Shown here piece by piece: positions 33,015 to 49,254 of a DNA stretch of 64,000 bases. The stretch spans positions 58,245-122,244 of the forward strand of contig SAAU01000001.1 in assembly GCA_009929265.1 (NCBI GenBank), written 5' to 3'. A program made the translations under genes and the position numbers. Under the pieces are notes generated by a model, which searched no databases, was not told the DNA's origin, and saw only the letters and a program-made list of their open reading frames with translations. Origin of the DNA: Alphaproteobacteria bacterium. GTDB taxonomy: Bacteria > Pseudomonadota > Alphaproteobacteria > CASFRQ01 > SAAU01. Numbering within the stretch: the stretch's first letter is position 1; each line of letters begins with the position of its first letter.

Positions 33015-34733
33015 ATGAACACCCCCTCTGTTAAAGTTTCCTTTTTAGGAGGATGCAATCCTACGAAAATTGGAGCGAATTCTACTCTTTTTACTGTCAA
33101 AAAAAATAATAAAAATCTTAATGTATTGGTCGATTTAGGCTCTATGTTTGTTGACGATATTTCAACAGAATATAATAGGGTTATGCCAGATTTGATTCCT
33201 TATTTAGGCAAAATTGATGATCTGTTCATTACCCATGGGCATTTGGACCATATTGGAGCCATTTCGGATTATCTTTTCTTGATTAAAAAACTAAGAGAAG
33301 AAGCAACTTTTGGCGACAAAAATGACTTAAAACTTCCGGTTTTACACGTCAATAAATTCACCTATAAAGCTATTAGTGAAGGAATTGAACCAGCTGTTAG
33401 AGACCTTTTTGAAGAAATCCCTGTTAAGTTTTTTGATAAAGAATCCGTTATTGAAGTGAGTGAAGATTTTAAGGTTCATCCGATTGCTGTTTCTCATTCC
33501 ATTCCAGAAGCATCAGCTTTTTTAATCGAAACAGAGGCCGGAAATTTCCTTCATATGGGAGATTATAAGCTTTCCAAAATTCAGCTCGGGCATTCCTTTG
33601 ATTTCAATAGATTAAAGACGCTTTGTAAAGAAAAAGGGGTCGATTATTTAATTGATGACGCAACAAGGGCTGGATTAAGCGCTACAGGTGTTCCGGAAGA
33701 GGAAATTCGAAGTGGGATTTTACACCTTTTTGAAAAAAACAAATCCAAGCGTATTATTGGCTCTGTTATTTCTTCAAATATGGAGGCTTTATTTAACTTT
33801 GTAAACGCAGCAGAAAAATCAGGGAAAAAGGCGGTTATTCTTTCAGGAAAACGCCTTATTTCTTTTTATGAGATTCTTTTAGAATCAAAGCTTATTAAAG
33901 AAGACACGTTTTCTATTCCTATTTATTTATGCAATAAAAATATGACTGGAAAAGAAACAAAAGAAATCCAAAATTTGGAAAGAAATGAGCAGGCTTGGTT
34001 GGTCTCGGGATGTCAAAACGAGACGTTTTCAAGAATGAATTTGATGAGCTTAGGGCGGGATGATAAAATCAATTTATGCTCTGAAGATGTCGTCGCTTTA
34101 ATGCAGGCATGTATCCCTGGAAATGAATGCGAATATGAACGGTTAATCGAAGATTTATTGCATATTGCCTCCCCAAAAATCTATGCAACAAGAGATCAGT
34201 CTAATCGCTTTAAAGAAGTGACGTATTTGAATGATATTTATATTTCAGGTCATGCAAAAAAAGAAGATAAGCAAAAATTATTTGATTTCATCCTTAAAAA
34301 CAGTAAAGCAAAGACAAAGCTCATTCCTTTCCATGGAAGTTATTTCCAACTTAAGGCGCTTGAAAAAGTGGGAAGAGAATCGGGATTAGGAATTGTTAAA
34401 CGTAGAGTTAATGAGGATTTATACTTCTCGGAAGAGTCTTATTTTACCAAAAAAAGAGAAAGTTCCTCCTACATCGCTGTTAAATATGTCAAAGTTAATA
34501 AGAAAAACACGCCCTCCTATCACCTTGTTAATTTAACAAGAAAAGGCGAAATTGAGCCTGTTTCTTTGATTTACTCAGAAGATCAGGATATGTTTGATCT
34601 TTATAAAACAAAGGCTGTTTCTAATAATTACGAAGAGATTTATGGAAAACTGGAAGATGAAGAAGCCTTAAAGAAAAAGGAAAAAGACATTTTAATTTAC
34701 AGAGAATTAAAGCTATCTGCGAAAGGAATATAA
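33015..34733 (+). CDS. rnj: ribonuclease J (metallo-beta-lactamase/beta-CASP)
   Basis: The MBL motif reads THGHLDHIGA. RNase J-like blocks include HSIPEASAFLIETEAGNFLHMGDYK and RIIGSVISSNMEALFNFVNAAEKSGKKAV. The ATG at 33015 follows AAAGGAG. The ORF-track start at 32916 is a TTG. Confidence 0.6.
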   Translation: MNTPSVKVSFLGGCNPTKIGANSTLFTVKKNNKNLNVLVDLGSMFVDDISTEYNRVMPDLIPYLGKIDDLFITHGHLDHIGAISDYLFLIKKLREEATFGDKNDLKLPVLHVNKFTYKAISEGIEPAVRDLFEEIPVKFFDKESVIEVSEDFKVHPIAVSHSIPEASAFLIETEAGNFLHMGDYKLSKIQLGHSFDFNRLKTLCKEKGVDYLIDDATRAGLSATGVPEEEIRSGILHLFEKNKSKRIIGSVISSNMEALFNFVNAAEKSGKKAVILSGKRLISFYEILLESKLIKEDTFSIPIYLCNKNMTGKETKEIQNLERNEQAWLVSGCQNETFSRMNLMSLGRDDKINLCSEDVVALMQACIPGNECEYERLIEDLLHIASPKIYATRDQSNRFKEVTYLNDIYISGHAKKEDKQKLFDFILKNSKAKTKLIPFHGSYFQLKALEKVGRESGLGIVKRRVNEDLYFSEESYFTKKRESSSYIAVKYVKVNKKNTPSYHLVNLTRKGEIEPVSLIYSEDQDMFDLYKTKAVSNNYEEIYGKLEDEEALKKKEKDILIYRELKLSAKGI

Positions 34734-34748: not shown

Positions 34749-34777
34749 TTGACAAGAATAAATGACTATGCTATTAT
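34749..34777 (+). promoter_or_regulatory. near-consensus sigma70 promoter (TTGACA, 17 nt, TATTAT) driving the phage-derived module
   Basis: TTGACA lies at 34749-34754 and TATTAT at 34772-34777, with an exact 17-nt spacer. It sits about 90 nt upstream of the terminase start. Confidence 0.5.
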
Positions 34778-34868
34778 TCTGTAAAATGTCGCAATAGGTG
34801 GGTTAGTTAAAGATTAACTTCAAAGAAAAATAAAAAAGGGAAGAATCGAAAGGTTCTTTCCTTTTTCT

Positions 34869-36203
34869 ATGTTTAAAGAAAGGAAGAACGTGTCAATTAA
34901 ATTAGAAATTCCTGTTCTGTTTTCTCCTCTTTTAAAAGAAAAAAAACGCTATAAGCTTTATTATGGAGGGCGGGCAGGGGGAAAAAGTTATGCTTTTGCC
35001 GAAAGCATCCTCCTTAAAGGGCGAATGGAAAAGCTTTTTATTGTCTGTGTACGTGAAATTCAAGAGAGTATTAAAGAATCTGTTTATAAGCTGCTTTCCG
35101 ATAGAATTGAAAAATTAGGCCTCTCAGATTACAAAATTTTTGAAAGAAAAATCGAAAATAAGCTAACAGGAACGAAAATTATCTTTAAGGGATTAAGAGA
35201 TCAGGATGCCTCAAAGATAAAGTCCTTAGAAGGGGCGGATATTTGCTGGATTGAAGAAGGGCAATCTATTACAAAGAAAAGCTGGAATATTTTAGATCCA
35301 ACCATTCGAAAGGAAGGCTCCGAAATCTGGATTTCTATGAATAGAGAAAATGAAAACGATGCTCTTTGGATGATTTTAGGCAAACATCCCGATAAAAGGA
35401 CGTTGGTTCAAAAAGTTAATTTTATGGATAATCCCTTCTGTCCCGAAGAAATTAAATTTCAGGCCAAAAAATGCCTCAAAGATAGACCAGAAGAATATCC
35501 ACATATTTGGCTGGGAGAGCCTAAATCTCAAGCCGATAAGACGTTAATTTCATCTGGATTGATCTTAAAAGCTTTTCAAACGAAAGGAATTCTTTCCAAA
35601 AGTCCACTTGTGATTGGAGTCGATATTGCCAGATTTGGATCAGATAAAAGTGCTTTTGTTTACAGAAAAGGCCGGTCGTGTTTTAAGTATGAGCTTTTGT
35701 CCTCTCAAGATACAGTGGATATTGCCAATCGATTAACAGCTTTAATCTATGAGGTGCATCCCCATAAGATTTTCTTAGATTTGGGAAATTCCGGGGCAGG
35801 GGTCTACGATATCCTAAATGATAGAGGGTTTTCCGAGATTGTTGTTGGGATAAATTTTGGTGCTAAAGCCATTCAAAAGGATAGATATGTCAATAAACGT
35901 GCCGAAATGTGGGACGGTATTCGATTATGGCTTTCGGGAAAATTGCCCGTTGAGCTTTTAGAACATGAAGGCGTGCTTTCTGATTTGATTTCGGTTCAAA
36001 AAAAGTATGATAGCTATGGGCGATTACAGCTTGAAAGCAAGGATGAACTTAAGAAGAGGTTAGGGCATTCTCCTGATATTGGGGATGCTTTAGCTTTGAC
36101 CTTTGCAGAGCCTGTTTTCGAAAAAACACCGCCAAAGCTTTACAAATCTGGTGTTTCTTTTGAAGATCTTTTTCAAGAAGAAAAGCTCGATTTATCCTGG
36201 TGA
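34869..36203 (+). CDS. phage terminase large subunit (PBSX-like family)
   Basis: 444 aa. The Walker A-like ATPase motif reads YYGGRAGGKSYAFAE. A C-terminal nuclease-like half contains acidic residues (VIGVDIARFGSDKSAF). Confidence 0.75.
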   Translation: MFKERKNVSIKLEIPVLFSPLLKEKKRYKLYYGGRAGGKSYAFAESILLKGRMEKLFIVCVREIQESIKESVYKLLSDRIEKLGLSDYKIFERKIENKLTGTKIIFKGLRDQDASKIKSLEGADICWIEEGQSITKKSWNILDPTIRKEGSEIWISMNRENENDALWMILGKHPDKRTLVQKVNFMDNPFCPEEIKFQAKKCLKDRPEEYPHIWLGEPKSQADKTLISSGLILKAFQTKGILSKSPLVIGVDIARFGSDKSAFVYRKGRSCFKYELLSSQDTVDIANRLTALIYEVHPHKIFLDLGNSGAGVYDILNDRGFSEIVVGINFGAKAIQKDRYVNKRAEMWDGIRLWLSGKLPVELLEHEGVLSDLISVQKKYDSYGRLQLESKDELKKRLGHSPDIGDALALTFAEPVFEKTPPKLYKSGVSFEDLFQEEKLDLSW

Positions 36204-36346
36204 GCGTCTAAAAAGAGTAATAAAAATTCTTATTTTAAATACTAGTTGTATTTGTTTTTTGAATAGATTACACTAAAAACGCGTAAGCTTGTTGTTGTCA
36301 AGACGTCTTAATTTTTTAAGGCGTCTTTTTTTATTGGGAGTTTTAA

Positions 36347-36598
36347 ATGTTAAATGCCGTTTCGGATCGGATTTTCGTTAGGTTAAAAGAGGCGCCTAAA
36401 AAAAGTTCTCTTATTCTAACTGATTCTCTAAAAGGGATTTCAAATCAAGGAATTGTAGAAAGTGTAGGGCCTCTTGTTTATTCTGTTAAAAAAGGACAAG
36501 AGGTTCTTTTTCATTGCTTTGATGAGCTGCCAACCCCTGAAAAAGGAGTGGTTGTTATTCGAGAATCAAGCATTTTAGGAATTTATGAAAATGAGTAA
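36347..36598 (+). CDS. GroES-like 10-kDa co-chaperonin-fold protein (phage-encoded?)
   Basis: 83 aa. The N-terminus reads DRIFVRLKEAPKKSSLIL and the C-terminus reads VVIRESSILGIYE. These run parallel to GroES DRVIVKR...GGIVL and MSESDILAIVE. The 3' end overlaps the next ORF. Confidence 0.35.
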   Translation: MLNAVSDRIFVRLKEAPKKSSLILTDSLKGISNQGIVESVGPLVYSVKKGQEVLFHCFDELPTPEKGVVVIRESSILGIYENE

Positions 36599-38444
36599 AT
36601 TATCAAAAAATACATCACTTTCTTTTTGGCAAAAACGAGTTTTGGATGCCGAAAAGAAATATTATGATTACCACAATCTTGTCGATAAAACGCGAAAATT
36701 TTATAAGGATAGTGAATCAACGTTAGGAAAATCAGGACATTACAATATTTTTTGGTCCTCTGTTGAAACATTAAAGCCCTTTCTTTACTTTAAGTGTCCC
36801 GAAATTCATATCAAACGCTTAAATAAAGAGGCTTCTAAAGGCGAAAAATATGCTTGTAAAATTCTTGAAAAAGCTTTGAAATGGAGTGTTTCTCAAGCCG
36901 ATTTCGATAGTGTTTTGAAATATGCAAGAAATGATTTTCTTATCTCTGGCATGGGGCTTCTTTGGGAAAGATATCAAGGTGAATTTACAAAAATTGACGG
37001 CGAAGATATTAAAGTTTCCGAAAATGTCTTGTCGCAATATGTGGATCCGTCTTGCTTTATTGCCGATTGTGATAATGTTGGAATTTGGGAGGATGTCACT
37101 TGGGTGGCTCGACGCGTTTATATGTCTTTAAGGGAGATTGAAAAAAGTTTTGGAAAAGAAAGTTTGGAAAGCTTACAAATCAATCTAAAAGAAGATGAAA
37201 AAGACTTTAAATCCTATGTCGTTTACGAAGTTTGGGATAAAGTTACCAAAAAAGTCTATTGGTTTGAAAAGAATGGCACAAAATTCTTCAAGGTTTTAGA
37301 GGATCCTTTGCATTTGAAGGACTTTTTCCCGTGTCCAAAGCCCTTGTTTGCGACCCTAACGAATGATAGCATTATTCCTATTCCTGATTATATTTTGATT
37401 AAAGAACTCTTAGATGAGTTAAATGGGGTTAATTACCGAATGAGGATGATTACGCAGGCGTTTAAAGTCTCTGGAGCCTACGATGGATCTTTCCCCGATT
37501 TACAAAATATTTTGGAAAAAGAAAATGTATTGGTGGCCTTAAAAGACTTTATAAAACTTAAGGAAAACGGCGGAATTAAAGGGGTTATCGACTTTATTCC
37601 TTTGGAACAATATGTCGCAGCCCTATCAGAGCTTGCTGAACGCAGGAAGGATATTATGATGCAAATTTATAATATCACAGGAATTTCTGATATTATGAGA
37701 GGGGCTTCTAACCCACAAGAAACTGCCACTGCCGTTGTTCGAAAAACAAACTTTGGGAACCTAAGAAACCAAGACCGGCAAAATGATATGCAACGCTTTA
37801 TTGCGGATCTTTACCGTCTAAAGGCCGAGATGATTGCAGAGCTTTTTTCAAAGGATTTATTGCTTTCATTTCTTTCTAAAGAAGAACGACAAGATGAGGA
37901 GGCCTCAAAAGAAGCTCTTCGTATTTTACGGGAAGAAAAAATCCGCCAAATGAGCTTTCTAATTGGAACAGATGGCTTGTTTAACCAGGAAGAAGAGCTT
38001 AAAAAGACATCAGATGTGCTTTCTTCGTTAAATGGAATCGTTCAAAATGCGCTTCAAAATGTATCTGTGCAGCCTCTCTTGTTGCTTTTTTATAAGGAAA
38101 TGGTGGATGTGGTTGCGCAATACTTGCCCAAAGCAAGATCCCTTGAGAGTGTGATTGAATCGACGTTTGATAAGATTTCAAAAGAGCTTTCCTCAAAAGA
38201 AAATCCAGGGCCTAATCTTGGATTTTTACTTGAGCAAGAAAAACTTAAAAACACCTTTATGATTGAAAAAGAAAAGCTTGAAATTAAAAGAAAAGAGCTT
38301 CTCTTAAAGGAAAATGAGTTTAAATCAAAGCGAGATCTCACTCAAAAAGAAATGGCCTTGCAAGCACACTTTAAAACAGAAGAGTTAAAAGAAGATAAGA
38401 AGGTTGATAGCAATATTTCAACAGGGTTTGTGAAAGATTTTTAA
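36585..38444 (+). CDS. putative phage portal protein with C-terminal coiled-coil
   Basis: 619 aa. It sits immediately after the terminase and has a long C-terminal helical, Lys/Glu-rich region. I recognised no diagnostic motif, so the call rests on position and size. Confidence 0.3.
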   Translation: MKMSKLSKNTSLSFWQKRVLDAEKKYYDYHNLVDKTRKFYKDSESTLGKSGHYNIFWSSVETLKPFLYFKCPEIHIKRLNKEASKGEKYACKILEKALKWSVSQADFDSVLKYARNDFLISGMGLLWERYQGEFTKIDGEDIKVSENVLSQYVDPSCFIADCDNVGIWEDVTWVARRVYMSLREIEKSFGKESLESLQINLKEDEKDFKSYVVYEVWDKVTKKVYWFEKNGTKFFKVLEDPLHLKDFFPCPKPLFATLTNDSIIPIPDYILIKELLDELNGVNYRMRMITQAFKVSGAYDGSFPDLQNILEKENVLVALKDFIKLKENGGIKGVIDFIPLEQYVAALSELAERRKDIMMQIYNITGISDIMRGASNPQETATAVVRKTNFGNLRNQDRQNDMQRFIADLYRLKAEMIAELFSKDLLLSFLSKEERQDEEASKEALRILREEKIRQMSFLIGTDGLFNQEEELKKTSDVLSSLNGIVQNALQNVSVQPLLLLFYKEMVDVVAQYLPKARSLESVIESTFDKISKELSSKENPGPNLGFLLEQEKLKNTFMIEKEKLEIKRKELLLKENEFKSKRDLTQKEMALQAHFKTEELKEDKKVDSNISTGFVKDF

Positions 38445-38470
38445 CCCTTAATACAAGAAAAAGGTGAGGT

Positions 38471-38689
38471 ATGGTAAAAAGAAAAACGCCTCCAAAAGAT
38501 ATGAAAAAAATCTGGTTAGAGGTTTTTGATAAAATGGGTGGAATTGAAGGATTGCTTTCTTGGGCAAATGAAAATCAAAATGAATTTTATAAAATTTGCA
38601 CAAAGCTTTTTTCAATTGAAATAAAAGATAAAGATGAAAAGCCAAATCAGGTTCTTGTTAAATTTTTGGAAGATAAGAAGTTAAATTAA
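38471..38689 (+). CDS. hypothetical phage-module protein (72 aa)
   Basis: The ORF is co-directional and tightly packed within the phage-derived block. Confidence 0.2.
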   Translation: MVKRKTPPKDMKKIWLEVFDKMGGIEGLLSWANENQNEFYKICTKLFSIEIKDKDEKPNQVLVKFLEDKKLN

Positions 38690-38757
38690 GTTATTTTATT
38701 AACAAGCTATAAAAGAAGGTTAAATTTATTTTAGCCTTCTTTTTTTATGGAGGAATT

Positions 38758-38985
38758 ATGGCCTTTATTAACAGCCTATTTCAGACAGATTTTGAGTTGC
38801 CCAATGGTGAAAAAGTCTCTTCTTTAAAAGAAGCAGAAGAAAAAATGAACCAGCTTGGGATAACTTTATCAAGCAATTATTCAGAGGATTATTACAAGAA
38901 AAAACGTCTGAGTAATACGAAAAAAGAGAAGGAAGATCTCTTCAATCTCTTTATTTTAAACTACAAAAGGAGTATTTGGTTATGA
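38758..38985 (+). CDS. hypothetical phage-module protein (75 aa)
   Basis: The ORF is co-directional within the phage block. Confidence 0.2.
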   Translation: MAFINSLFQTDFELPNGEKVSSLKEAEEKMNQLGITLSSNYSEDYYKKKRLSNTKKEKEDLFNLFILNYKRSIWL

Positions 38986-39084
38986 CAACTAAAACAAGAG
39001 AAGAATTAGAAAAACTTTTTTCTTCTTTGCCGAAAACTATAAAAGAAGAAAAACATAAAGAGGGGGAGAAATCCTCAAGTCATT

Positions 39085-39519
39085 TTGGAGAAATTAGCTT
39101 CCCTTTATCAGGTTTCATTTCCATCAAAGCCCCCTCTTCAAAAAGGGGAAAATAAGGATAAACCCCTTCTTCAGAAGGCTTTATCTTTACTAAAATCCTT
39201 TGATGACGCGGTTGATGAAGCGGGGACAAAAAAGCACCCCTTCTTTAATGACGTTTCTTTAGAAATGGCTTCCCTTTTGAAAAATAAGCTCGTCTCCTCT
39301 TTGGAAGAGGCTTATGAAAAAGCCGTTTGGCTTAACCCAAAAATTAGAAATTCTTTAATCGAAGAAAAAACGCTTCAAACAATAAAGAAAAAAGTCGAAG
39401 AATCCGAAAAGGCCAAGGAAGCCTCCTTTTCGGTTAAGGGAAAAATGACTGGACAATCAGATCTTTCAAAGCTTTCAACGAGAGATCTTTTGGAATTTCA
39501 ATTCCGGAATTTAGACTAA
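39085..39519 (+). CDS. hypothetical helical phage-module protein (possible scaffold)
   Basis: 144 aa, alpha-helical and Lys/Glu-rich. An overlapping ORF at 38983-39156 in another frame may mean a frameshifted single gene. Confidence 0.2.
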   Translation: MEKLASLYQVSFPSKPPLQKGENKDKPLLQKALSLLKSFDDAVDEAGTKKHPFFNDVSLEMASLLKNKLVSSLEEAYEKAVWLNPKIRNSLIEEKTLQTIKKKVEESEKAKEASFSVKGKMTGQSDLSKLSTRDLLEFQFRNLD

Positions 39520-39546
39520 ATTTTAACTTAAAAAAAGGAAAACAAA

Positions 39547-39795
39547 ATGAGTAATTCAAATTATAATGATATTTTTACGACAACATTAGAAAGCAGAACA
39601 GGAAAATTGGCTGATAATGTTTCCGATAGCAACGCTCTTCTTTCTAGATTGAGAGAAAAGAAGAATATGGAGAATATCCAGAAACTACCCTTCCAGAAGA
39701 TGGCACTTGGTCCAATTATGTTTCAACAGGTTCTTCTGGAAGTGGGACTGTTTTGGCGTTGCGCTTTAAAAAAAATAATCGAGAAACACGTATGA
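39547..39795 (+). CDS. hypothetical phage-module protein (82 aa)
   Basis: The ORF is co-directional within the phage block. Confidence 0.2.
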   Translation: MSNSNYNDIFTTTLESRTGKLADNVSDSNALLSRLREKKNMENIQKLPFQKMALGPIMFQQVLLEVGLFWRCALKKIIEKHV

Positions 39796-39840
39796 AAAAC
39801 ATTGCGTTAAACTACTTTATTAAAGTAAAGGAGGAAGAAA

Positions 39841-40191
39841 ATGTCGCATAAAATTACCCCTGATGGGATTTCTATTACGCAAGGAGATTCTCTATATCTT
39901 CCTATTACTTTTAATGGGATGGATATTACGAATGCCACCTTAAATATGCAGGTGAGCTCTCAGGATTTGAAGACCCTTTTCATTGATAAGAAAGTCTCAA
40001 CACATATCGATGCTGCAAACGGGAAAACGGCTCTTAACTTAATGCCGTCAGATATAAATATTCCCGTTGGCGACTATGTGACAGATATGGAACTTTGCCT
40101 TTTAGATGGTCAAATCTTGACCTTTTACCCTGAAAGAACAGAAAAACAAGCCTTTTTTAGAGTCCTTGCCCAAGTGACAAAGGAGGAATAA
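39841..40191 (+). CDS. hypothetical phage structural protein (beta-rich, 116 aa)
   Basis: AGGAGG-like RBS (AAGGAGGAAGAAA) sits before the ATG. Predicted beta-strand-rich composition. Confidence 0.25.
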   Translation: MSHKITPDGISITQGDSLYLPITFNGMDITNATLNMQVSSQDLKTLFIDKKVSTHIDAANGKTALNLMPSDINIPVGDYVTDMELCLLDGQILTFYPERTEKQAFFRVLAQVTKEE

Positions 40192-41112
40192 ATGTCTGAA
40201 ATGAATTTATTTTTTGATGAAACAACGGGATTAAGCTTGGACATCAAAGAAGAAGCCTTAGACGTCTCAATAAATGAGGCAGAATTAACTGTATATCCAG
40301 AAGGCCTTAGCTTTATTCATAATGGAGAAGATGAAATAAAGGCCTTTGTTGAAAAGGTTTCAAAACCCGAGCTCAATACTTTTGTTTTAGAAGAAAAAAA
40401 GCCTGAATTAACAGCGTTTACTCAAGAAAAATTAACTGCGTTAGGCACTCAATATCAAACCTATAACACTCAATTAAATCAGCAAATAGATGAGAATAAG
40501 TCCGAAATGGAAGCCCTTTATAGCGCAACAAATACGCTAAAAGAAGAGGCCGCTTTACAAAAAGAGAAAGCCTTTCTTTGGGCGACAAAAATGGATGGAG
40601 AGGTTGAGGAAGGCCAAGGGTATAGCTCAAAATACTATGCATCGCTTTCCGATGAAAAAGAAGACAAGTCAAACAAAATTGCCCTTTTTCATGAAACGCC
40701 AGATGATACGCATTATCCTTCCGAAAAGCTGGTTTATGACGCTTTAGCCAATAAAATAAATTTGGAGGCGTCAAATCTATCTGATTTAGGTAAGAAAAAT
40801 TTGTCAGAATGGTCTCTTCCTGGGGACAGTTTTATAAATGTGACGCCAATTGCCTCCGGAGGAACTTATACAGCACCAAAAAATGGCTATTTTTCTTTTT
40901 TAGCAACAGCTCTTGATTCAACGGCCAGTATGATTTGCTTTAATGATGAGAGGCGGTTTTATCAATCGGTTTTTTATTGCAATGGATCGTCCCTTTTCCT
41001 CGGGCTAACAATTCCAATTCGGCAAGGTCAAACCATAACCTTTAGTTTTAAGAGTATCGAAAATCTGAATGTTTCATTCATCTATACAAAGGGAGAAGAG
41101 CTATGTTTATAG
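40192..41112 (+). CDS. hypothetical phage structural protein (306 aa; capsid or receptor-binding candidate)
   Basis: An acidic N-terminal half is followed by a beta-rich C-terminal region. It is translationally coupled to the upstream ORF (stop-start TAAATG). Confidence 0.25.
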   Translation: MSEMNLFFDETTGLSLDIKEEALDVSINEAELTVYPEGLSFIHNGEDEIKAFVEKVSKPELNTFVLEEKKPELTAFTQEKLTALGTQYQTYNTQLNQQIDENKSEMEALYSATNTLKEEAALQKEKAFLWATKMDGEVEEGQGYSSKYYASLSDEKEDKSNKIALFHETPDDTHYPSEKLVYDALANKINLEASNLSDLGKKNLSEWSLPGDSFINVTPIASGGTYTAPKNGYFSFLATALDSTASMICFNDERRFYQSVFYCNGSSLFLGLTIPIRQGQTITFSFKSIENLNVSFIYTKGEELCL

Positions 41113-41465
41113 GCTATCAAAATGGGAAAATTGTAGCTCAAGCTTTAACACAAGAAATTCTTGAATCCAAGCTTTGCGTTTCATTTGATGAAATTGAAGA
41201 GACAAGTCAAAATGTGATTGAAAAAGAAGGAAAACTTTATCTTGAAAATGAAATACCTTTAACGACAAAAGAAGAAATTGAAGAAAAAAGAAAATATCTT
41301 TATCAAATAAAAGTCGACTGTTTAACAGCCGAAATTTCAAGATTAAGAGACGAAATTCAAACTTTAGAAATTCAAGAGAAAATAGCAGATTTAATTTCAA
41401 AAAGGAATGAAATTGTTGATGAAATAAAGCTTCAAAATCCTTACCCAGATGAAGGAGAAAGCTAA
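41103..41465 (+). CDS. hypothetical coiled-coil protein (120 aa)
   Basis: Heptad-like E/K/I-rich sequence. It overlaps its neighbours by a few nt. Confidence 0.2.
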   Translation: MFIGYQNGKIVAQALTQEILESKLCVSFDEIEETSQNVIEKEGKLYLENEIPLTTKEEIEEKRKYLYQIKVDCLTAEISRLRDEIQTLEIQEKIADLISKRNEIVDEIKLQNPYPDEGES

Positions 41466-41728
41466 TGGCCACAAAATCAGAAAATGCGCTTTTAGCTCGA
41501 ATTGATGAGCGAACTTTAGAAATTCAAAAAAAGCTAGATAAACATATCCTTTTGATGGATTCGCTTTCTATAAAGGTGAATGAGCACGAACTTATTTTAT
41601 TTGGAAAAAAAGGAAATGATGGGCTGATTTCAAAAGTTGAATATCATGACAAAATTTTACTTAAAGCCATTGCTATTGGAGGGTTTTTACTTGTTTCTTT
41701 TGAATTTTTGAAAGGGGTTTTATTATGA
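41465..41728 (+). CDS. holin-like small membrane protein (C-terminal TM)
   Basis: 87 aa with a single C-terminal TM segment (AIAIGGFLLVSFEFL). It overlaps the endolysin start by 4 nt, which is the classic position for a holin or antiholin. Confidence 0.3.
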   Translation: MATKSENALLARIDERTLEIQKKLDKHILLMDSLSIKVNEHELILFGKKGNDGLISKVEYHDKILLKAIAIGGFLLVSFEFLKGVLL

Positions 41729-42078
41729 ATTTTTTTACAAAAAAAGAGCTTTCTTGCCCTTGTTGTGATTCCTATTTTTTCAAAGAAGAAACTTTAGAAA
41801 TGCTAGATGAAGCCCGAAAAAGGGCAGGGATTGCCTTTATTATCTCAAGCGCTTGTCGGTGCGAAAAACATAATAAAGAGGTGGGCGGAAGCCCGTTATC
41901 GGCGCATAAAACAGGGGAGGCTGTGGATCTTATTTTTCAAAATTCAAACGAGGCTTTTCTCATTTTGGAAAGCCTTATTTTTGTTGGATTTAGGCGGATA
42001 GGAATCAATTTCAAAAAGGGATTTATTCACGTGGATTCTTCAAAAACACTTCCCCAAGAGGTGTTATTTCACTATTAA
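41725..42078 (+). CDS. endolysin, peptidase M15A-type (L-alanyl-D-glutamate / D-Ala-D-Ala peptidase fold)
   Basis: Zn-ligand pattern: SACRCEKHNKEVGGSPLSAHKTGEAVDL (H-x6-D) and a later FIHVDS His. The protein is 117 aa. Confidence 0.7.
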   Translation: MNFFTKKELSCPCCDSYFFKEETLEMLDEARKRAGIAFIISSACRCEKHNKEVGGSPLSAHKTGEAVDLIFQNSNEAFLILESLIFVGFRRIGINFKKGFIHVDSSKTLPQEVLFHY

Positions 42079-42246
42079 TGACATAGTTTAAGGAGTTATT
42101 ATGAAAGAAAATTTAATTAAATTTTTAAAAGAAAATAAAAAGAAAATCATTACCTTTATCCTTTCGGGGATAGTGGCTGTCTTTGGGATTACCCTTCAAG
42201 AGGGGGCGCTTGATTCCTTAACTTCCCTTTTAAATGGGTTGATTTA

Positions 42247-42450
42247 ATGCAAAATTTTCTAATCGGTTGTTTTTTAGGAGGGGGCTTAGGCTTCCTCCTC
42301 TTTTTTTATGCCTACAAAAAGGGACGAAAAGATGAAAAAATCTATCAAAAATCAAAAAATCTACACCTCATATTGGAGCAAGAAAAAATTGAAAGCAGGC
42401 CTTGTCTTTCTGATGATGAACTTTATGACTGGTTGCGCGGCAAAAAATGA
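42247..42450 (+). CDS. putative i-spanin (Rz-like; N-terminal TM)
   Basis: 67 aa. The N-terminal TM segment reads FLIGCFLGGGLGFLLFFYAY and is followed by a charged helical segment. It sits immediately after the endolysin. Confidence 0.3.
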   Translation: MQNFLIGCFLGGGLGFLLFFYAYKKGRKDEKIYQKSKNLHLILEQEKIESRPCLSDDELYDWLRGKK

Positions 42451-42586
42451 ATGCCTTTGCCCTTTTTTCCCAAAACCTTCCCCAAAAATTGTCCAAGAAA
42501 TAGATTGCTCCAAAATGAAAGAGACATGCCTATGGCTTCAAGAACTTTATAAACTTAATAAAAAATTGGATCTGTGCCAACCCTAA
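42308..42586 (+). CDS. putative o-spanin (Rz1-like lipoprotein) overlapping the i-spanin in the +1 frame
   Basis: A basic n-region and hydrophobic core precede a lipobox-like FMTGC. The mature part is Pro/Cys-rich (CLCPFFPKPSPK...C...C). It starts inside the 42247 ORF in a different frame and extends beyond it, matching the overlapped Rz/Rz1 architecture. Confidence 0.3.
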   Translation: MPTKRDEKMKKSIKNQKIYTSYWSKKKLKAGLVFLMMNFMTGCAAKNECLCPFFPKPSPKIVQEIDCSKMKETCLWLQELYKLNKKLDLCQP

Positions 42587-42779
42587 AGAAAAAAATGCTG
42601 TTTTAATAAGAGAAACCCTAAAGATATTTTTTTATCTTAATGTTTTTTAATAACTCTTTGAATTCATTTTCAAAAAAATGTTACACTTTTTTTAAAAAGA
42701 TGCCTTTTTTAAGTTGATTATTTCGAAAAAATATTTATCCTTCTTGTTATTGTATCTTAAAACTTTCAAAGGAGGCATT

Positions 42780-43259
42780 ATGACCGATGAAGCTGCGTTA
42801 GAACAAACAAGAAAGGCCATTCAAAAGTGGAAAAAGAAAAGAGGTTCCCTTATTATGGCTTTGCATGAAATTCAAGGAATTTATGGCTATGTTCCTTGGG
42901 ATCATGCAAAAGTTGTAGCCGAAGAAATGGGGGTGGCTTTGGCCCGTATTTACGAAGTTTTAACCTTTTATAATTTCTTTAAGCTTGAATCTCCGGGAAA
43001 ATATATCATTTCTGTTTGTGATGGAACAGCGTGTCATATTAAAGGGGGCGCTTCGGTTATTGATGCTTTTGCAAAACATTTAAATATCAATCCAGGGGAA
43101 ACAACGCCTGACCGCCTTTTTCACATGCAAATTGTGCGGTGTTTAGGCTGTTGTGGATTGGCCCCTGTTGTGGTTGTAAATGGGAAAACATATGGAAAGG
43201 TCTCTCCTGCAGACGTTCCAAGTATTATTGATGAATGGAAAAAGAAGGAGGCCCTCTAA
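42780..43259 (+). CDS. hydC: [FeFe]-hydrogenase NuoE-like subunit (thioredoxin-like [2Fe-2S]; HydC/HndA-type)
   Basis: The NuoE family Cys pattern reads CDGTACHIKG...CLGCCGLAPV. The ATG at 42780 follows AAAGGAGG. The TAA stop overlaps the next ATG as TAATG. Confidence 0.8.
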   Translation: MTDEAALEQTRKAIQKWKKKRGSLIMALHEIQGIYGYVPWDHAKVVAEEMGVALARIYEVLTFYNFFKLESPGKYIISVCDGTACHIKGGASVIDAFAKHLNINPGETTPDRLFHMQIVRCLGCCGLAPVVVVNGKTYGKVSPADVPSIIDEWKKKEAL

Positions 43260-45070
43260 TGGATGAACTTACTCCAGAAATGAAAGAAAAGTTAAAGAAA
43301 CTCTACGCCACACAACGAGAAAACCTTGTTAAGATGAAGGAAGAGTTTTTGGTAAAAAAAGACTCCTACATTGCCTCTATTTACACCTGTAATAGCACAG
43401 GATGTCACTCTGGCGGGGCAGAAAATGTAATTGATGCCTTTAAGGAATCTTTGGAAATTTACGGTCTTCAAGATAAAGTGCGGATGGTGTCAACGGGATG
43501 TATGGGGTTGTGTGCACACGGACCTTTGGCGCGTGTTGAAATTAAAGGGCAAAAGCCTTTTCTTTATAAAGCCGTTGATGGCATGCTTGCTAGATTGATT
43601 GTAGCCGAGCATCTTCTTCCTGCTTTGAAAGCTTTAAAAGAGGGGAAAGCTGAAAACTTTGAAGTTAATGCTTTCTTAAAACAAAGAGAGCTTTCATTAG
43701 ATTTACCTTTCTTTACAAAACAAAAGAAAGTTGTCTTGAAAAATTTAGGGCACTCTGATCCAGAAGATTTTGGCGAATACCTAGCAACGGGTGGGTATCA
43801 AGCCTTTATTAAAGCTCTTGATACCATGACTCCAAAAGAAGTGCGCGATGTTATCCGTGAAAGCGGCCTTCGTGGACGTGGGGGTGGGGGATTTCCTACC
43901 GCCAAAAAGTGGGATTTACTTGCTGCTGCAACAGGAGATGAGAAGTTTGTCATCTGTAATGGCGATGAAGGGGATCCTGGCGCCTATATGGATGCGTGTA
44001 TCTTAGGGGGCGGCGCACATAGCGTTTTAGAAGGCATGATGATTGAGGCCTATGCCACAGGGGCAACACATGGTTGGTTCTATGTTCGGGCGGAATATCC
44101 TTTGGCTATTGAACGGGTTGAACAAGCCTTAAAACAAGCCAAAAAATATGGCCTTTTAGGAAAAAATATTTTAGGAACAGATTTCAGCTTTATGGCCGAG
44201 CTTCGTTATGGCGCAGGAGCTTTTGTCTGCGGTGAAGAAACAGCTTTAATGGAATCTTTGGAAGGTAAACGAGGCACCCCTCATCCACGTCCACCATACC
44301 CTACAGAAAAAGGACTTTTCGGGAAACCTTCGGCTATCAACAATGTTGAAACTTTGGCCAATGTCCCTGTTATTATTAGGGAAGGGGCAAAATTCTTTAA
44401 CTCTGTTGGAACAGAAACCAGTAAAGGAACCAAGGTTTTTGCCTTAACGGGGAAAGTTAAACACAGTGGATTGGTTGAAGTTCCTATGGGGATGAGCGTC
44501 TCTGAGATTGTTAATGATATTGGAGGGGGCACAAGCTCTGGAAAACCGTTTAAGGCGGTTCAAACAGGGGGCCCTTCTGGAGGGGTTATTCCTGCCAATA
44601 AGCTTGATATGCCTATTTGCTATGAAGAGCTTAAGAAAATCGGCTCTATGATGGGATCTGGCGGAATGATTGTCATGGATCAAGATGACAGTATGGTTGA
44701 AATTGCCAAATTCTATTTATCCTTTACGGTTGATGAATCTTGCGGAAAGTGTGCGCCTTGTCGAATTGGCGGCTATCAAATGCTTGAGCTAATGAAGAAA
44801 ATTGCAAGAGGAGACGGGAAAGAAGATGATATTCAAGAGCTGATTGAAATCGGAAGTGTGATGAAGAAAGCTTCTCTTTGCGCTTTAGGTCAAACAGCAC
44901 CAAACCCTGTTTTATCGACTTTAAGATTTTTTAGAGAGGAATATGAAGCTCTCCTTAAAAAAGATGACGATGAAGAAGAGGGCTGTCAAGCTGCTCTTCC
45001 CAAAAAAACAGATAAAGAAGAAAGCAAAGAAAAGCCAGAATGTGCAACGTGTTCCGGATGTGGGAGATAG
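43259..45070 (+). CDS. hydB: [FeFe]-hydrogenase NuoF-like NAD(P)H/FMN subunit with N-terminal [2Fe-2S] domain (HydB/HndC-type)
   Basis: An N-terminal 4-Cys thioredoxin-like module is present. The FMN/NADH site reads GRGGGGFPTAKKW. The NuoF 4Fe-4S motif reads ESCGKCAPCRIGG and the C-terminal end reads CATCSGCGR. GAAGGAGG sits 7 nt before the ATG at 43259. Confidence 0.85.
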   Translation: MDELTPEMKEKLKKLYATQRENLVKMKEEFLVKKDSYIASIYTCNSTGCHSGGAENVIDAFKESLEIYGLQDKVRMVSTGCMGLCAHGPLARVEIKGQKPFLYKAVDGMLARLIVAEHLLPALKALKEGKAENFEVNAFLKQRELSLDLPFFTKQKKVVLKNLGHSDPEDFGEYLATGGYQAFIKALDTMTPKEVRDVIRESGLRGRGGGGFPTAKKWDLLAAATGDEKFVICNGDEGDPGAYMDACILGGGAHSVLEGMMIEAYATGATHGWFYVRAEYPLAIERVEQALKQAKKYGLLGKNILGTDFSFMAELRYGAGAFVCGEETALMESLEGKRGTPHPRPPYPTEKGLFGKPSAINNVETLANVPVIIREGAKFFNSVGTETSKGTKVFALTGKVKHSGLVEVPMGMSVSEIVNDIGGGTSSGKPFKAVQTGGPSGGVIPANKLDMPICYEELKKIGSMMGSGGMIVMDQDDSMVEIAKFYLSFTVDESCGKCAPCRIGGYQMLELMKKIARGDGKEDDIQELIEIGSVMKKASLCALGQTAPNPVLSTLRFFREEYEALLKKDDDEEEGCQAALPKKTDKEESKEKPECATCSGCGR

Positions 45071-45075
45071 GAAAT

Positions 45076-46836
45076 ATGACAAAAATGATTAAGCTAAAAA
45101 TTGACAATCTCGACGTTGAAGTCCCTGAAGGAACCTCCATTCTTGATGCGGCTAAAAAGGTCCAAGTTGAAATTCCAACTTTATGTTATCACCCCGATTT
45201 GGAGCCAACAGCAGCTTGTGGGCTTTGTATTGTAAAGGCCAATGGACGTATGCTTCGTTCTTGTTGCACCCCGGTAATGGAGGGAATGGAAGTCATTACG
45301 CGGGATCCTGAAATTGTAAATGAACGCAAAACTGTGCTGAAGCTTATTTTAAGTCGGCATCCCAATGAATGCTTGACCTGTCTTAAGAATGAAACATGTG
45401 AGTTGCGTCAAAAGGCGGCCGAATTTGGTTTCCGGCAAGATAATTTCAAGAAAATCTCTCTTTCGCACGAAGATGCACCTTTGGATTGTTCGACGCGCTC
45501 TATTGTCTTGGATCCAAGAAAGTGTATTTTATGTGGCCGATGTGTTCAAGTTTGCCAAAATGTTCAAAATGTTTGGGCTTTGTCCTTCTTGAATAGAGGG
45601 TTAAAAACAAGAATTGCTGTCGCAGGGAACTTAACTTTGGATGAATCTCCTTGTATTAAATGTGGTCAATGTGTGGCTCACTGTCCAACAGGGGCTTTGA
45701 CAGAGTATGATGATACAGGAATTGTCTGGCGGTCTTTAATGAATAAAGAAAAATATTGTGTGGCTCAAATTGCTCCAGCTGTTCGGGTTGCCATTGGGGA
45801 AGCCTTTGGGAAAGATCCAGGGGAAATCTCAACGAAAAAGCTTTATTCTGCCCTTCGTCGATTAGGCTTTGACGCCGTCTTCGACACCAACTTTGGCGCC
45901 GATGTGACAATTATGGAGGAAGGCTCCGAGTTCGTGGAACGTTTTGCTCATGGAAAAGGCTCTTTACCTTTGATTACGTCTTGCTGTCCAGCTTGGGTAG
46001 ATTATATGCAGAAATATTATCCTGATATGATTGAGCATTTTTCAACTTGCAAATCTCCGCATGAAATTGTGGGCGCTTTGACAAAGACCTATTATGCCGA
46101 AAAGAAAGGCCTAGATCCAAAGGATATTATGATGGTTTCTATTATGCCTTGCACGGCCAAAAAATATGAAATCAGACGCAATGAATCTATGTATGCAAGT
46201 GGATGTCAAGATGTTGACGTGTCTTTAACAACCAGAGAACTTGCCCGAATGTTAAAGCAAGCTGGAATCGTCTTTGATGAATTAAAAGATGAGGAAGCAG
46301 ATAGTCCTTTAGGGGAATACTCTGGCGCGGGAACAATCTTTGGATTTTCAGGCGGCGTGATGGAAGCAGCTTTAAGAACGGCCTATCGCTTGGTTGAGGG
46401 AAAAGAGCTTGATGACGTAGACATCACCCCATTAAGAGGCGTGGACGAAGGCATTAAAACAATGGAAATGCCTTTGGGCGGCAAAACTTTGAAAGTGGCC
46501 GTTGCTCAAGGAACTGGAAATGTTGGAAAGCTCCTTGACGAAGTGCGTGATGCCTTAAATAGAGGGGAAGAATCTCCTTACCAATTTATTGAAGTTATGG
46601 CTTGTCCTGGCGGATGTATTGGGGGCGGTGGACAACCCACTGGTGTCACGAATAAAGTTAGAAAAGAACGAACAAAAGGGCTTATTATGGACGATAAGAA
46701 GTCTTCTATTCGGAAATCTCACCTTAACCCTGACGTTCAAAAACTCTATGAGGAGTATTTAGATAAACCTTTAAGTGAAAAGGCGCATCACCTTCTTCAT
46801 ACGACATATAACGCGGTTCCTGTTTATAAAAAGTAA
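45076..46836 (+). CDS. hydA: [FeFe]-hydrogenase catalytic subunit
   Basis: The N-terminal plant-type [2Fe-2S] reads C..C.C...C. A His-ligated [4Fe-4S] reads HPNECLTCLKNETC. Two ferredoxin-type CxxCxxCxxxCP motifs follow. All three H-cluster signatures are present: L1 TSCCPAW, L2 MPCTAKKYE and L3 MACPGGCIGGGGQP. The ATG at 45076 follows GGAG. Confidence 0.9.
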   Translation: MTKMIKLKIDNLDVEVPEGTSILDAAKKVQVEIPTLCYHPDLEPTAACGLCIVKANGRMLRSCCTPVMEGMEVITRDPEIVNERKTVLKLILSRHPNECLTCLKNETCELRQKAAEFGFRQDNFKKISLSHEDAPLDCSTRSIVLDPRKCILCGRCVQVCQNVQNVWALSFLNRGLKTRIAVAGNLTLDESPCIKCGQCVAHCPTGALTEYDDTGIVWRSLMNKEKYCVAQIAPAVRVAIGEAFGKDPGEISTKKLYSALRRLGFDAVFDTNFGADVTIMEEGSEFVERFAHGKGSLPLITSCCPAWVDYMQKYYPDMIEHFSTCKSPHEIVGALTKTYYAEKKGLDPKDIMMVSIMPCTAKKYEIRRNESMYASGCQDVDVSLTTRELARMLKQAGIVFDELKDEEADSPLGEYSGAGTIFGFSGGVMEAALRTAYRLVEGKELDDVDITPLRGVDEGIKTMEMPLGGKTLKVAVAQGTGNVGKLLDEVRDALNRGEESPYQFIEVMACPGGCIGGGGQPTGVTNKVRKERTKGLIMDDKKSSIRKSHLNPDVQKLYEEYLDKPLSEKAHHLLHTTYNAVPVYKK

Positions 46837-46890: not shown

Positions 46891-46954
46891 GAAAATACAT
46901 TGACAGGAAAACTAATAATTGATAAAAATCTATGAAATACACGAAAGGTTTTTT

Positions 46955-47719
46955 ATGAGATATTTTTTCTTAATTCTTTTTTTTCCTTCTCTTTTAATGG
47001 CAGCGGAGGATTCTGCGTGCGTTTTTCAACATATTGACAAATGTTATTCTTGTGATGAGTTAAAAGCAATTGGACTTTCTGTTTCTAAAGAAGAAAAAGA
47101 TTCAGATGCTTTAAAAAAATGCAAAAATAGAAATGTTTATATAAGTTGGATGATTCCCCATGTTTTCTCCGTTTTAAAAAAGTGTCCAAAAGAAATGCCT
47201 TTGTTAAATGGCATGGGCCTTTGTTTTTCCTGCGCTGAAAAAGAACCTGTTTATCAAAGTTTTAAAAAGGATTTCCCTTTTTCTGGAGAATATACCTGCC
47301 CAAATAGGGTTTTGATAAGAGAAAATTCTTTCTTTGCTTACTCATATATAAGCCAATGCCCAAAAGACAAACCTTTAGTGGGATATCACGGAGATTGCTA
47401 TAGCTGCGATACGCCTCTTTCCATTAACATTAGTGAAAATGAAGTTTTATGTCGCAGATTTTGCGATGGAAAGCGCTTTTTTAATGGAGGATACTGTATG
47501 TCTTGCTCCTTTGTTCCCCTTAACGAATATCCGAATAAAGATTTTTGTATTTCTTGCGGGGGATATTGGGATAAAACGCATTGCAGGGAAAGAAGGGAAG
47601 GGGATGACCTTCAATTCTGCCACAAAAATAGCGATTGCGCAAAAGATGAGATTTGTTTTTATAATAGATGCAAAGCCTTTACAGAAGAAGAAAAAAAATC
47701 CCTTTATGGAAAGTTTTAA
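46955..47719 (+). CDS. secreted Cys-rich repeat protein, paralogue A
   Basis: The signal peptide reads MRYFFLILFFPSLLMAA. At least 24 Cys lie in repeated CPK(D/E)xPL...CxSC units. A conserved C-terminal module runs CRRFCDGKRFFNGGYC...CISCGGYWDKTHC...CHKNSDCAKDEICFYNRCKAFTEEEKKSLYGKF. Confidence 0.5.
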   Translation: MRYFFLILFFPSLLMAAEDSACVFQHIDKCYSCDELKAIGLSVSKEEKDSDALKKCKNRNVYISWMIPHVFSVLKKCPKEMPLLNGMGLCFSCAEKEPVYQSFKKDFPFSGEYTCPNRVLIRENSFFAYSYISQCPKDKPLVGYHGDCYSCDTPLSINISENEVLCRRFCDGKRFFNGGYCMSCSFVPLNEYPNKDFCISCGGYWDKTHCRERREGDDLQFCHKNSDCAKDEICFYNRCKAFTEEEKKSLYGKF

Positions 47720-47722
47720 ATT

Positions 47723-48687: not shown

Positions 48688-49158
48688 TTAGTTTGCTTTT
48701 TCTGCCTTTTGCTTTTCGGCAATTCTTTGACGATAAATGGCCGAAAAATCAATCGGATTTATCATTAAAGGAGGAAATCCACCATCCCGCGTTGCATCTG
48801 AGATAATGTTGCGAACAGCTGGGAACATCAGGTGAGGAATTTCAACAAGCAAGAAAGGTTCGACTTGTTCGGCAGGCACTTTCAATGTGACCAAAGCCCC
48901 GTATTCCAACTCACAAAGAAAAATATCTTTCTTTGTTTCTTTGTCTTTAGCTTCCGCTTTTATGGAAAGGTTGACAGTGTAGAGGCTGTTTTCTTCATTG
49001 AATTTTTCCCCTTTTACATCCACGTTAATTGAAATTTCTGGAGGTTGCTTCATCGCAATCAAAGAATTTGGATTATTTGGCGCTTCAAAAGACAAATCCT
49101 TCACATATTGTGTGTTTATTTGAACAAAAGGAGCTTCCTTATTTTTTTCTTCTGTCAT
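48688..49158 (-). CDS. secB: protein-export chaperone SecB
   Basis: 156 aa. The N-terminus (FVQINTQYVKDLSFEAPNNP...) and overall pattern are typical of SecB. Confidence 0.85.
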   Translation of the reverse strand: MTEEKNKEAPFVQINTQYVKDLSFEAPNNPNSLIAMKQPPEISINVDVKGEKFNEENSLYTVNLSIKAEAKDKETKKDIFLCELEYGALVTLKVPAEQVEPFLLVEIPHLMFPAVRNIISDATRDGGFPPLMINPIDFSAIYRQRIAEKQKAEKAN

Positions 49159-49254
49159 TTTTCTCTCTTTCTATTGAAATTTTTCTTTTTTAGTCATATA
49201 TTATTTGAAAATGAGATATACTCTCTTGGAATAAGATAGGGATAGAAATAAAAA

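Follow-up and report, generated by a model that had tools for sequence, protein, structure and literature searches.

A hydrogenase operon, probably the host's own, beside a defective phage-derived gene cluster in an uncultured alphaproteobacterium

The DNA analyzed here, a 64-kb stretch of contig SAAU01000001.1 (the window in what follows), comes from an uncultured low-GC alphaproteobacterium, a species represented in our data by this window and by short metagenomic contigs. It contains an [FeFe]-hydrogenase operon, hydCBA, which begins directly downstream of the lysis genes of a phage-derived cluster, an arrangement that can be read in two ways: the hydrogenase may have been carried into the locus as phage cargo, or the cluster may simply lie next to an operon of the host. 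The gene content of related clusters and the genomic setting of related hydrogenases make it likely that the operon is the host's own, abutting a cluster that has become defective, and that the adjacency is an ordinary one.

Gene content and decay of the phage-derived cluster

A podovirus-like cluster of head, tail, and lysis genes occupies positions 34749 to 42586, between an RNase J-like gene and hydC (Table 1). The open reading frame (ORF) listing and the family scans place a same-strand run of phage genes at 34869 to 42586, opening with an intact gene for the terminase large subunit (TerL), of which GTG at 34890, behind AAGGAAG, is a possible true start, and closing with a lysis cassette. 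Among the element ORFs in the window, the family scans detected no integrase or recombinase; neither a terminase small subunit (TerS) nor a repressor homologue was found anywhere in the 64 kb, and the flanking repeats resembling attachment (att) sites reach at most 10 nucleotides (nt), are A-rich, and are equaled by 32% of shuffles.

An intact version of the head-tail module is present at the same site in another strain, sampled as Logan SRR22315502 (L088 and L001) and as the NCBI metagenome-assembled genome (MAG) GCA_028706035.1 (L089 and L002), where it encodes a 279-amino-acid (aa) scaffold protein, a 324-aa capsid protein, virion or tail proteins of 184, 226, 511, 146, and 217 aa, and a 251-aa collar fiber. 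The window differs from this module by two deletions: one of 296 bp, out of frame, at about 39069 to 39074 with 6 bp of microhomology (AAATCC), which broke the scaffold-like gene, and one of 5,447 bp at 39666 to 39668 with 3 bp of microhomology (TAT), which took the capsid gene beyond about 44 codons together with seven tail, virion, and fiber genes. The retained ORFs include the 75-aa ORF of the head module, which has homologues (F12) in 18 relatives, and the 116-aa ORF of the distal region, whose homologues (F9) sit after the collar-fiber gene in relatives. Because the two deletions removed capsid and tail genes, and because the lineage is without TerS, repressor, and integrase, the cluster in this genome cannot make particles.

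The other strain carries lesions of its own, namely, an 11-nt frameshifting deletion in the ATPase domain of TerL (at about 4510 in L088 and 6475 in L089, equivalent to 35181-35191 of the window) and the loss of 1 nt from an A-run where the spanin genes overlap (at about 4540 in L002, equivalent to about 42443 of the window). The lesions in the window and in the other strain are different, and the strains therefore appear to have been inactivated separately and recently. Between the window and L088, synonymous divergence (pS) is 0.060 in the element genes and 0.061 in the flanking host genes, with a nonsynonymous-to-synonymous ratio (pN/pS) of 0.08 for the element; the equality of synonymous divergence in element and flanks indicates that the element was in place before the strains split. 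On these values, the cluster seems to have been under constraint for most of the time since before that split, and its lesions seem to be recent.

The lysis cassette, the junction, and the hydrogenase operon

Within the lysis cassette, the endolysin matches Peptidase_M15_3 (E 9.7e-16; cut-off 23.2 bits) and the PHROG endolysin family phrog_894 (E 3.3e-25), and its translation contains the metal-ligand motifs SAHKTGEAVD and HVD. The putative o-spanin gene is in the +1 frame relative to the putative i-spanin gene; its likely start at 42332 lies inside the i-spanin ORF, and it runs beyond the i-spanin end, which is the overlapped architecture. A two-component layout of this kind would be in line with a Gram-negative host. 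There is, in addition, weak homology (24 to 37% aa identity at the seven loci tabulated) between the o-spanin-like lipoprotein and the terminal lipoprotein gene (F19) of related elements. None of the 87-, 48-, and 67-aa proteins had a match in the scans of protein families and PHROG. The 87-aa ORF, which overlaps the endolysin start by 4 nt, was dropped as a confident holin, the call being one of hydropathy with no family match, and is treated here as a holin candidate, with the 48-aa membrane protein as an equally good one; a 50%-identical homologue of the latter lies about 700 bp upstream of TerL in the viral contigs L008 and L009. The original prediction, which had described a canonical cassette of holin, M15 endolysin, and overlapped spanins at the end of the phage block, thus agrees with the domain matches, the lipobox, and the frame layout as to the ORF coordinates, the endolysin, the spanins, and the position of the cassette at the end, and departs from our results in the holin label, which found no family match, and in any implication of an intact phage, of which the capsid and tail genes are deleted and TerS, repressor, and integrase are missing.

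The start of hydC lies 193 nt past the last lysis stop (42586), on the same strand, a distance that had been predicted at about 190 nt. The intervening AT-rich spacer contains a weak AT hairpin (42622-42639), which folds no better than shuffles, and simple scans of the spacer returned no consensus terminator or promoter. A promoter-like sequence, TTGAAT-18 nt-TACACT with a TGn motif, is situated at 42658-42687, upstream of hydC, and a comparable site, TTGCAA...TGTTATAAA, is located upstream of hydC in L131. Transcription of hydCBA would most likely start from this promoter-like site, and read-through from the late promoter of the element may also occur, as no strong terminator lies between the lysis genes and hydC. 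The junction is reproduced in two independent metagenome contigs, retrieved from separate archives by exact-protein look-ups (L129, ENA ERZ27249489; L130, JGI 3300014203), both of which have the order endolysin-p48-p67-spacer-hydC-hydB, with a spacer identical to that of the window except for one substitution and one A of a homopolymer run.

The genes hydC, hydB, and hydA overlap or abut in one tight operon. The start of hydC is the ATG at 42780, preceded by the ribosome-binding site AAAGGAGG; for hydB, the ATG overlapping the hydC stop is preferred over the alternative of the ORF listing at 43235, and the called hydB gene likewise begins at the hydC stop in L129, L130, and L006. In HydA, the H-cluster motifs L1 to L3 are intact: TSCCP (313), MPCTAK (369-374), and EVMACPGGCIGG (518). 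By its domains and motifs, the operon is identified as one for a three-subunit [FeFe]-hydrogenase of the HydABC type, with a predicted NADH-linked function, and the NCBI label on homologues reads "NADH-dependent [FeFe] hydrogenase, group A6." The combination of a NuoE-like, a NuoF-like, and a catalytic subunit, as well as the three H-cluster motifs, is shared with the electron-bifurcating or NADH-dependent HydABC of Thermotoga maritima and Acetobacterium woodii, whereas the host in the present case is an uncultured low-GC alphaproteobacterium, in which the enzyme is known from its genes alone. We found no description of hydrogenases in this clade in the literature searched.

Table 1. Features of the phage-derived cluster, its left neighbor, and the hydrogenase operon (window coordinates)
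Feature	Position	Strand	Evidence or remark
Divergent RNase J-like beta-CASP metallo-beta-lactamase gene	33015..34733	+	TIGR00649, PDB matches; left neighbor of element
Sigma-70-type promoter, TTGACA-17 nt-TATTAT, TGn before -10	34749..34777	+	Sequence reading; likely late promoter
Terminator-like hairpin, 10-bp stem, GAAA loop, U-run	34838..34868	+	-23.4 kcal/mol, z = -3.2
TerL, intact	34869..36203	+	Terminase_3 E 2.1e-32; phrog_3717 E 1e-53
GroES/Cpn10-like gene	36347..36598	+	Cpn10 E 3.2e-8; phrog_3188
Portal, P22-like	36585..38444	+	phrog_12082 E 2e-118; P22_portal
Two small conserved head-module ORFs, 72 aa and 75 aa	38471..38985	+	Present in L088/L001
Scaffold-like gene remnant	38976..39519	+	Compared with intact 279-aa gene of L088/L001
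Major capsid gene remnant (82-aa ORF)	39547..39795	+	phrog_9953 matches residues 1-44 of 329-position profile
Three retained distal virion/fiber-region ORFs, 116, 306, and 120 aa	39841..41465	+	phrog_1084 for 116-aa ORF
Holin candidate of the original prediction, 87-aa ORF	41465..41728	+	Hydrophobic segment at residues 63-87 (C-terminal); hydropathy only
M15 endolysin, VanY/L-Ala-D-Glu peptidase type	41725..42078	+	Peptidase_M15_3; PHROG phrog_894
48-aa single-pass membrane protein, alternative holin/antiholin candidate	42101..42247	+	Transmembrane-like segment at residues 14-33
i-spanin candidate, 67 aa	42247..42450	+	Transmembrane-like segment at residues 3-22, short periplasmic part
o-spanin candidate, lipoprotein, last element gene	42332..42586	+	Lipobox FMTG|C; Pro/Cys-rich mature part
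AT-rich spacer, element/host boundary, 193 nt	42587..42779	+	Sequence
hydC, NuoE-like [2Fe-2S] subunit	42780..43259	+	2Fe-2S_thioredx E 2.7e-48
hydB, NuoF-like flavin/NADH and Fe-S subunit	43259..45070	+	Complex1_51K E 2e-41; NADH_4Fe-4S E 1e-31; SLBB
hydA, [FeFe]-hydrogenase catalytic subunit	45040..46836	+	Fe_hyd_lg_C E 3.1e-95; Fe_hyd_SSU

Related clusters in uncultured Alphaproteobacteria

A capsid-based scan of species-representative (GTDB) genomes returned 37 loci (L091-L127), 36 of which are titled as MAGs of uncultured Alphaproteobacteria or "proteobacterium" and one (L108) as Acutalibacteraceae; the sources named in the titles are gut or rumen (mouse, sheep, deer, water deer, cattle-rumen RUG bins, and a human-gut MGYG-HGUT bin). 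The phage block of the window thereby leads to conserved head-tail-lysis clusters that lack an integrase and are present in 37 or more species of uncultured Alphaproteobacteria, a family of which no description was found in the literature searched. With genes at the related loci called by a simple longest-ORF script, the family gene order reads F15, repressor (helix-turn-helix plus S24), F11, TerS (P22 gp3 type), TerL, GroES-like protein, portal, scaffold, capsid, tail proteins, collar fiber, further fibers, lysozyme, and o-spanin-like lipoprotein. The conserved block measures about 17 kb, and about 13 kb in the lineage of the window, which is without TerS, the CI/LexA-type repressor, and two further left-arm genes of the relatives. 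The GroES-like gene (F8) lies between TerL and portal, overlapping the portal start, in 21 of the 23 relatives analyzed, and a built-in co-chaperonin is unusual in so small an element.

No integrase, transposase, or replication gene was found in the compact 17-kb members, and host genes directly adjoin the elements, including those for an alkaline-phosphatase-like protein, AnmK, a CorC-type transporter, a phosphoglucosamine-mutase-like protein, and an M23 peptidase. The original prediction had likewise seen no att repeats or integrase in the window and had proposed a search for them beyond it; the observation stands, and the limits of the window do not account for it, the compact members being integrase-less with host genes alongside. 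At the other end, the elements of relatives close with the o-spanin-like lipoprotein gene, and a host gene begins within about 25 nt of it.

Where the M23 flank is shared, in nine species, the identity of the element proteins follows that of the host flank, and in two closer pairs every element gene has a nonsynonymous-to-synonymous rate ratio (dN/dS) of 0.004 to 0.27, these and all further dN/dS values being Nei-Gojobori estimates that saturate at larger distances. Some members, as well as relatives in IMG/VR, have additional genes of phage type, among them methylases and an SNF2 helicase, and the mouse-gut MAG MGBC133411 contains two distinct members, L091 and L125, whose capsids match the query at 72% and 64% identity. 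The presence of two members in one MAG suggests that some are mobile phages rather than single-copy domesticated clusters, and the family probably includes true phages as well. Exact-protein look-ups of the TerL and GroES-like proteins of the window gave no record, and a scan of viral contigs with the portal protein gave no match. A blastn search against the INPHARED phages returned only a 67%-identical TerL segment in MT835830, an unverified, possibly incomplete 17-kb fecal scaffold that has the same structural genes.

Origin of the hydrogenase operon and nature of the cluster

The view that hydCBA is likely to belong to the host is supported by several lines of evidence: (i) hydC, hydB, and hydA had no match in the 37 related element loci, each covered to 10 kb on either side of the capsid gene; (ii) since relatives end at the same o-spanin-like lipoprotein, the right end in the window is the native end of the element, and the lysis cassette at 41465 to 42586 would be the original right-hand end of the cluster; (iii) the nearest HydA homologues, with 82% and then 64 to 70% identity, are from Alphaproteobacteria MAGs wherever the source is named, those from Omnitrophota, Margulisiibacteriota, and Elusimicrobiota reaching only 62 to 65%; and (iv) hydCBA has no phage genes nearby either in the 82% relative, where it lies between a PLD-family gene and RNase R/GreA/AddAB, or in the 70% relative, where it is preceded by PpiD and an outer-membrane protein gene. 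The cluster, in turn, has held this chromosomal position since before the sampled strains diverged, and its left junction is common to sister species. The reading mildly preferred in the original prediction, in which a phage integrated beside a hyd locus that was already there, is accordingly supported by the related loci and by the phage-free operons of relatives. Its compositional argument carries no weight: GC content at the third codon position (GC3) is 0.33 to 0.37 in hyd, 0.33 in TerL and portal, and about 0.30 to 0.39 in most conserved housekeeping genes of the window, and the higher total GC of hyd stems from codon positions 1 and 2 only, i.e., from amino-acid composition. With GC3 alike in element, hyd, and core genes, composition, which the original prediction had proposed to profile, does not discriminate between the readings.

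Several points weigh against this assignment. No relative with a syntenic empty site, in which the RNase J-like gene is followed directly by hydC or, as the original prediction had proposed to check, by secB, was found in the scans, so that the insertion event is a presumed one; relatives with hydCBA and no phage genes, which had been sought at the same locus, were found at other loci only. The neighborhood of hydCBA is different in every relative examined, and the operon has therefore moved within the clade, so that its arrival could post-date that of the element. Downstream of hydA, both genes at 46919-48637 are orphans without a family match, the holin and spanin calls are topological, and the hyd promoter-like site is a sequence match below the scan threshold. 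Finally, the RNase J-like gene may itself belong to the element, the left boundary of which would then lie at about 32.8 to 33.0 kb.

The adjacency could also be explained by an assembly chimera that joined a phage contig to a host contig, by cargo, or by the acquisition of one larger island. Three contigs of the same population (L001, L002, and L004) do stop between 42454 and 42678, as a chimera might lead one to expect, but the two independent assemblies from different archives (L129 and L130) cross the junction with a near-identical spacer and the left junction is crossed in three independent samples, which reduces the chance of such an artifact to almost nothing; the two crossing contigs led us to discard it. 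If hydCBA were a moron or auxiliary metabolic gene set that entered the locus at the right end of the element, its orientation, its start 193 nt downstream with no strong terminator between, and its changing neighborhoods in relatives, which make it mobile over evolutionary time, would all be accommodated. This is nevertheless very unlikely, and the moron hypothesis was rejected on the strength of the 37 related loci without hyd genes; moreover, the element closes with the same gene as its relatives, in which host genes come next, the copies of hydCBA in relatives have no phage genes nearby, an operon of 4.1 kb would be a very large addition to a head-full element of about 17 kb, and hyd has its own promoter-like site. 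The cargo reading put forward in the original prediction is thus contradicted by both the related loci and the shared terminal gene, and hydCBA should not be annotated as a phage auxiliary metabolic gene set. Less remote, though still improbable, is an island comprising the element, hydCBA, and the two orphans (about 33 to 48.6 kb) between the glycan cluster and secB. It would be in keeping with the lack of family matches for the genes at 46919-48637 and 31327-32770, with a regional synteny conserved in no relative found, and with the high divergence of the RNase J-like protein, for which a word-based search of 5.8 billion proteins gave a single homologue that passed E 1e-30, from the same species. 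On the other hand, GC3 does not set hyd, TerL, and portal apart from the core genes, HydA has its relatives within the same class of bacteria, integrase, transposase, and flanking repeats are all missing, and the element family occurs, without hyd, at other loci in 37 species, while the lineage seems fast-evolving and poorly sampled, which explains the orphans.

The cluster itself may be more than a decayed phage: it could be the local copy of a domesticated, particle-producing element, comparable to a gene transfer agent (GTA) or to PBSX, kept by selection and recently knocked out here. We consider this possible but doubtful, and the same tentative standing applies to the wider proposal of a previously undescribed family of compact, vertically inherited podovirus-like clusters, GTA- or PBSX-like and free of integrase and replication genes, in mostly gut-associated Alphaproteobacteria. 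In its favor are (i) the compact form of about 17 kb without integrase or replication genes, (ii) the host housekeeping genes that adjoin the element directly, (iii) the divergence of the element, which tracks that of the host M23 peptidase flank in nine species, (iv) the dN/dS of 0.004 to 0.27 for all element genes, and (v) the different, and so recent, lesions of the strains. TerS and repressor are, in addition, missing from all five versions found in the lineage of the window, and yet dN/dS is 0.08 and dS equals that of the host; as part of this proposal, the lineage would have lost both genes long ago and would nevertheless have stayed under purifying selection beside the RNase J-like gene. 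Against it, the family is known from genes alone, particles or packaged DNA never having been observed; most members have a CI/LexA-type repressor and a P22 gp3-type TerS, which are typical of temperate phages; one MAG carries two different members; and some members have extra phage-type genes (methylases, SNF2 helicase). Element dS is also below host-flank dS in two pairs (0.5-1.6 versus 1.3-2.0), which could mean re-infection at a preferred site, and an integrase could lie beyond the 10 kb covered on either side, or integration could proceed via host Xer recombinases. If the proposal were true, gut and anaerobic Alphaproteobacteria would exchange genes by a route that is new, and GTA-like elements would have a sixth independent origin.

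Left boundary and control region of the cluster

The left neighbor of the element encodes a divergent beta-CASP protein, the likely start of which is M34 of the ORF at 32916. The original prediction labeled the gene rnj; against TIGR00649, the protein scores 172 bits (154 bits for its counterpart in L090), short of the family cut-off of 400, whereas its top PDB matches are RNase J (E 1e-25) and the HGHLDH motif is present. By the curated cut-off, it would best be called RNase J-like rather than ribonuclease J. Scans for relatives of this protein found none in genome contigs, none in viral contigs when both RNase J-like proteins were used, and only the same species in an alignment scan of metagenome contigs.

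The RNase J-like gene lies immediately upstream of TerL not only in the window but also in L088/L089, in L135, which has the same arrangement at 92.6% nt identity, and in L090 (GCA_963611245.1) and L133 (GCA_949296785.1), where TerL is 74 to 75% and the RNase J-like protein 34 to 37% identical. The left junction is thus common to five genomes and the right junction to three. Nucleotide homology between the window and L090 begins at the promoter at 34749 (86% over 36 nt), and the 3' ends of the RNase J-like genes do not align. A hairpin with a U-run, of another stem sequence, is found at the equivalent place in L133 and L090 (z = -4.65), and distant relatives have the same promoter-plus-terminator layout upstream of TerS (coordinates of promoter and hairpin in relatives: L133, 2440-2545; L098, 4870-4922). 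This layout, which predicts a leader RNA of about 85 nt, suggests a late-operon control region of the antitermination type. Relatives also encode a hydrophobic mini-ORF of about 47 codons just upstream of the promoter-hairpin region.

Comparison of L133 (747-3926) with L090 (3640-6810) showed that the two have no more than the RNase J-like gene and TerL in common (80% nt identity), with homology stopping 27 nt past the TerL stop; TerL has no phage genes after it in L133, nor, apparently, in L090. TerL is intact in both, with a dN/dS of 0.076 at a dS of 1.07, and the corresponding values for the RNase J-like gene are 0.095 and 1.12. These figures are consistent with a solitary terminase gene that may be kept under selection beside a beta-CASP nuclease after the rest of the phage has gone, a small oddity in itself. 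A known defense system was considered for the RNase J-like/TerL pair and the orphan neighbors and was rejected, as PADLOC gave only weak fold-level metallo-beta-lactamase matches.

Comparison with known phage systems

The cryptic prophage DLP12 of E. coli K-12 keeps the lysis genes essD-ybcS-rzpD/rzoD. Prophages of this type resemble the present cluster in having lost integration and replication genes and some morphogenesis genes, and in retaining an endolysin with embedded or overlapped spanins beside host genes. The cluster differs in that its retained genes appear to be under strong purifying selection (dN/dS 0.08) and its lesions vary by strain, in that the compact members of the parent family are integrase-less even when otherwise intact, and in that the endolysin is an M15 peptidase rather than a lysozyme. 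With RcGTA of Rhodobacter capsulatus and PBSX of Bacillus, the shared traits are a compact set of head, tail, and in part lysis genes that lacks an integrase and replication genes, a fixed chromosomal site, and apparent co-divergence with the host under what may be purifying selection, to which PBSX adds that the TerL found here belongs to the Terminase_3 family, labeled "PBSX family" by NCBI. In sequence, however, the cluster is unrelated to RcGTA, a GTA of the HK97 siphovirus type, and has instead a P22-like portal and a podovirus-like tail module; unlike in RcGTA and PBSX, the lysis genes lie inside the cluster, and a CI-like repressor and a gp3-type TerS are retained by most members.

Among the spanins of Gram-negative phages, Rz/Rz1 of lambda are embedded and LysB/LysC of P2 are overlapped. 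The candidates described here share with them a gene for a small type II membrane protein combined with a +1-frame lipoprotein gene downstream of the endolysin, but they have no detectable sequence similarity to characterized spanins, the i-spanin candidate has only 67 aa, and an extra 48-aa membrane protein is encoded between endolysin and spanins. Late control in lambdoid phages relies on the constitutive promoter PR' followed by the terminator tR', which is read through via the Q antiterminator. The near-consensus promoter and the strong hairpin within about 90 nt, just before the packaging genes, are reminiscent of this system, although no Q-like gene is present in the window and the lambda late operon begins with lysis genes, whereas terminase comes first and lysis last in the present cluster.

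Other genes of the window

The two orphans between hydA and secB (46919-48637) encode proteins of 266 and 304 aa and had no Pfam, NCBIfam, PHROG, or PADLOC match; over 37 aa, the first is 49% identical to F27, a secreted Cys-rich protein encoded beside the element in four related species. Two very AT-rich ORFs (GC 0.25 and 0.28; GC3 0.19-0.25) immediately precede the RNase J-like gene, at 31327-32770; one of them is annotated on the contig with a match to DUF1796, and in composition the two are more atypical than any other genes of the region, the phage block included. The only tRNA gene of the window, tRNA-Glu(CTC) at 53308-53383 on the minus strand, is 10 kb away from the element and makes no obvious integration site, and since it lies inside the 196-aa ORF at 52795-53385 on the same strand, that ORF is probably spurious. 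A single 448-aa ORF at 51360-52706 combines a TsaD (tRNA t6A) domain (24-311) with a C-terminal thioredoxin domain (347-445), which represents either an unusual fusion or a missed stop or start between two genes. In support of the taxonomic assignment that homologue names had given, the segment at 48688-51372 contains secB (minus strand), a Tim44-like gene, mltA, and smr, a gene order that is typical of Alphaproteobacteria.

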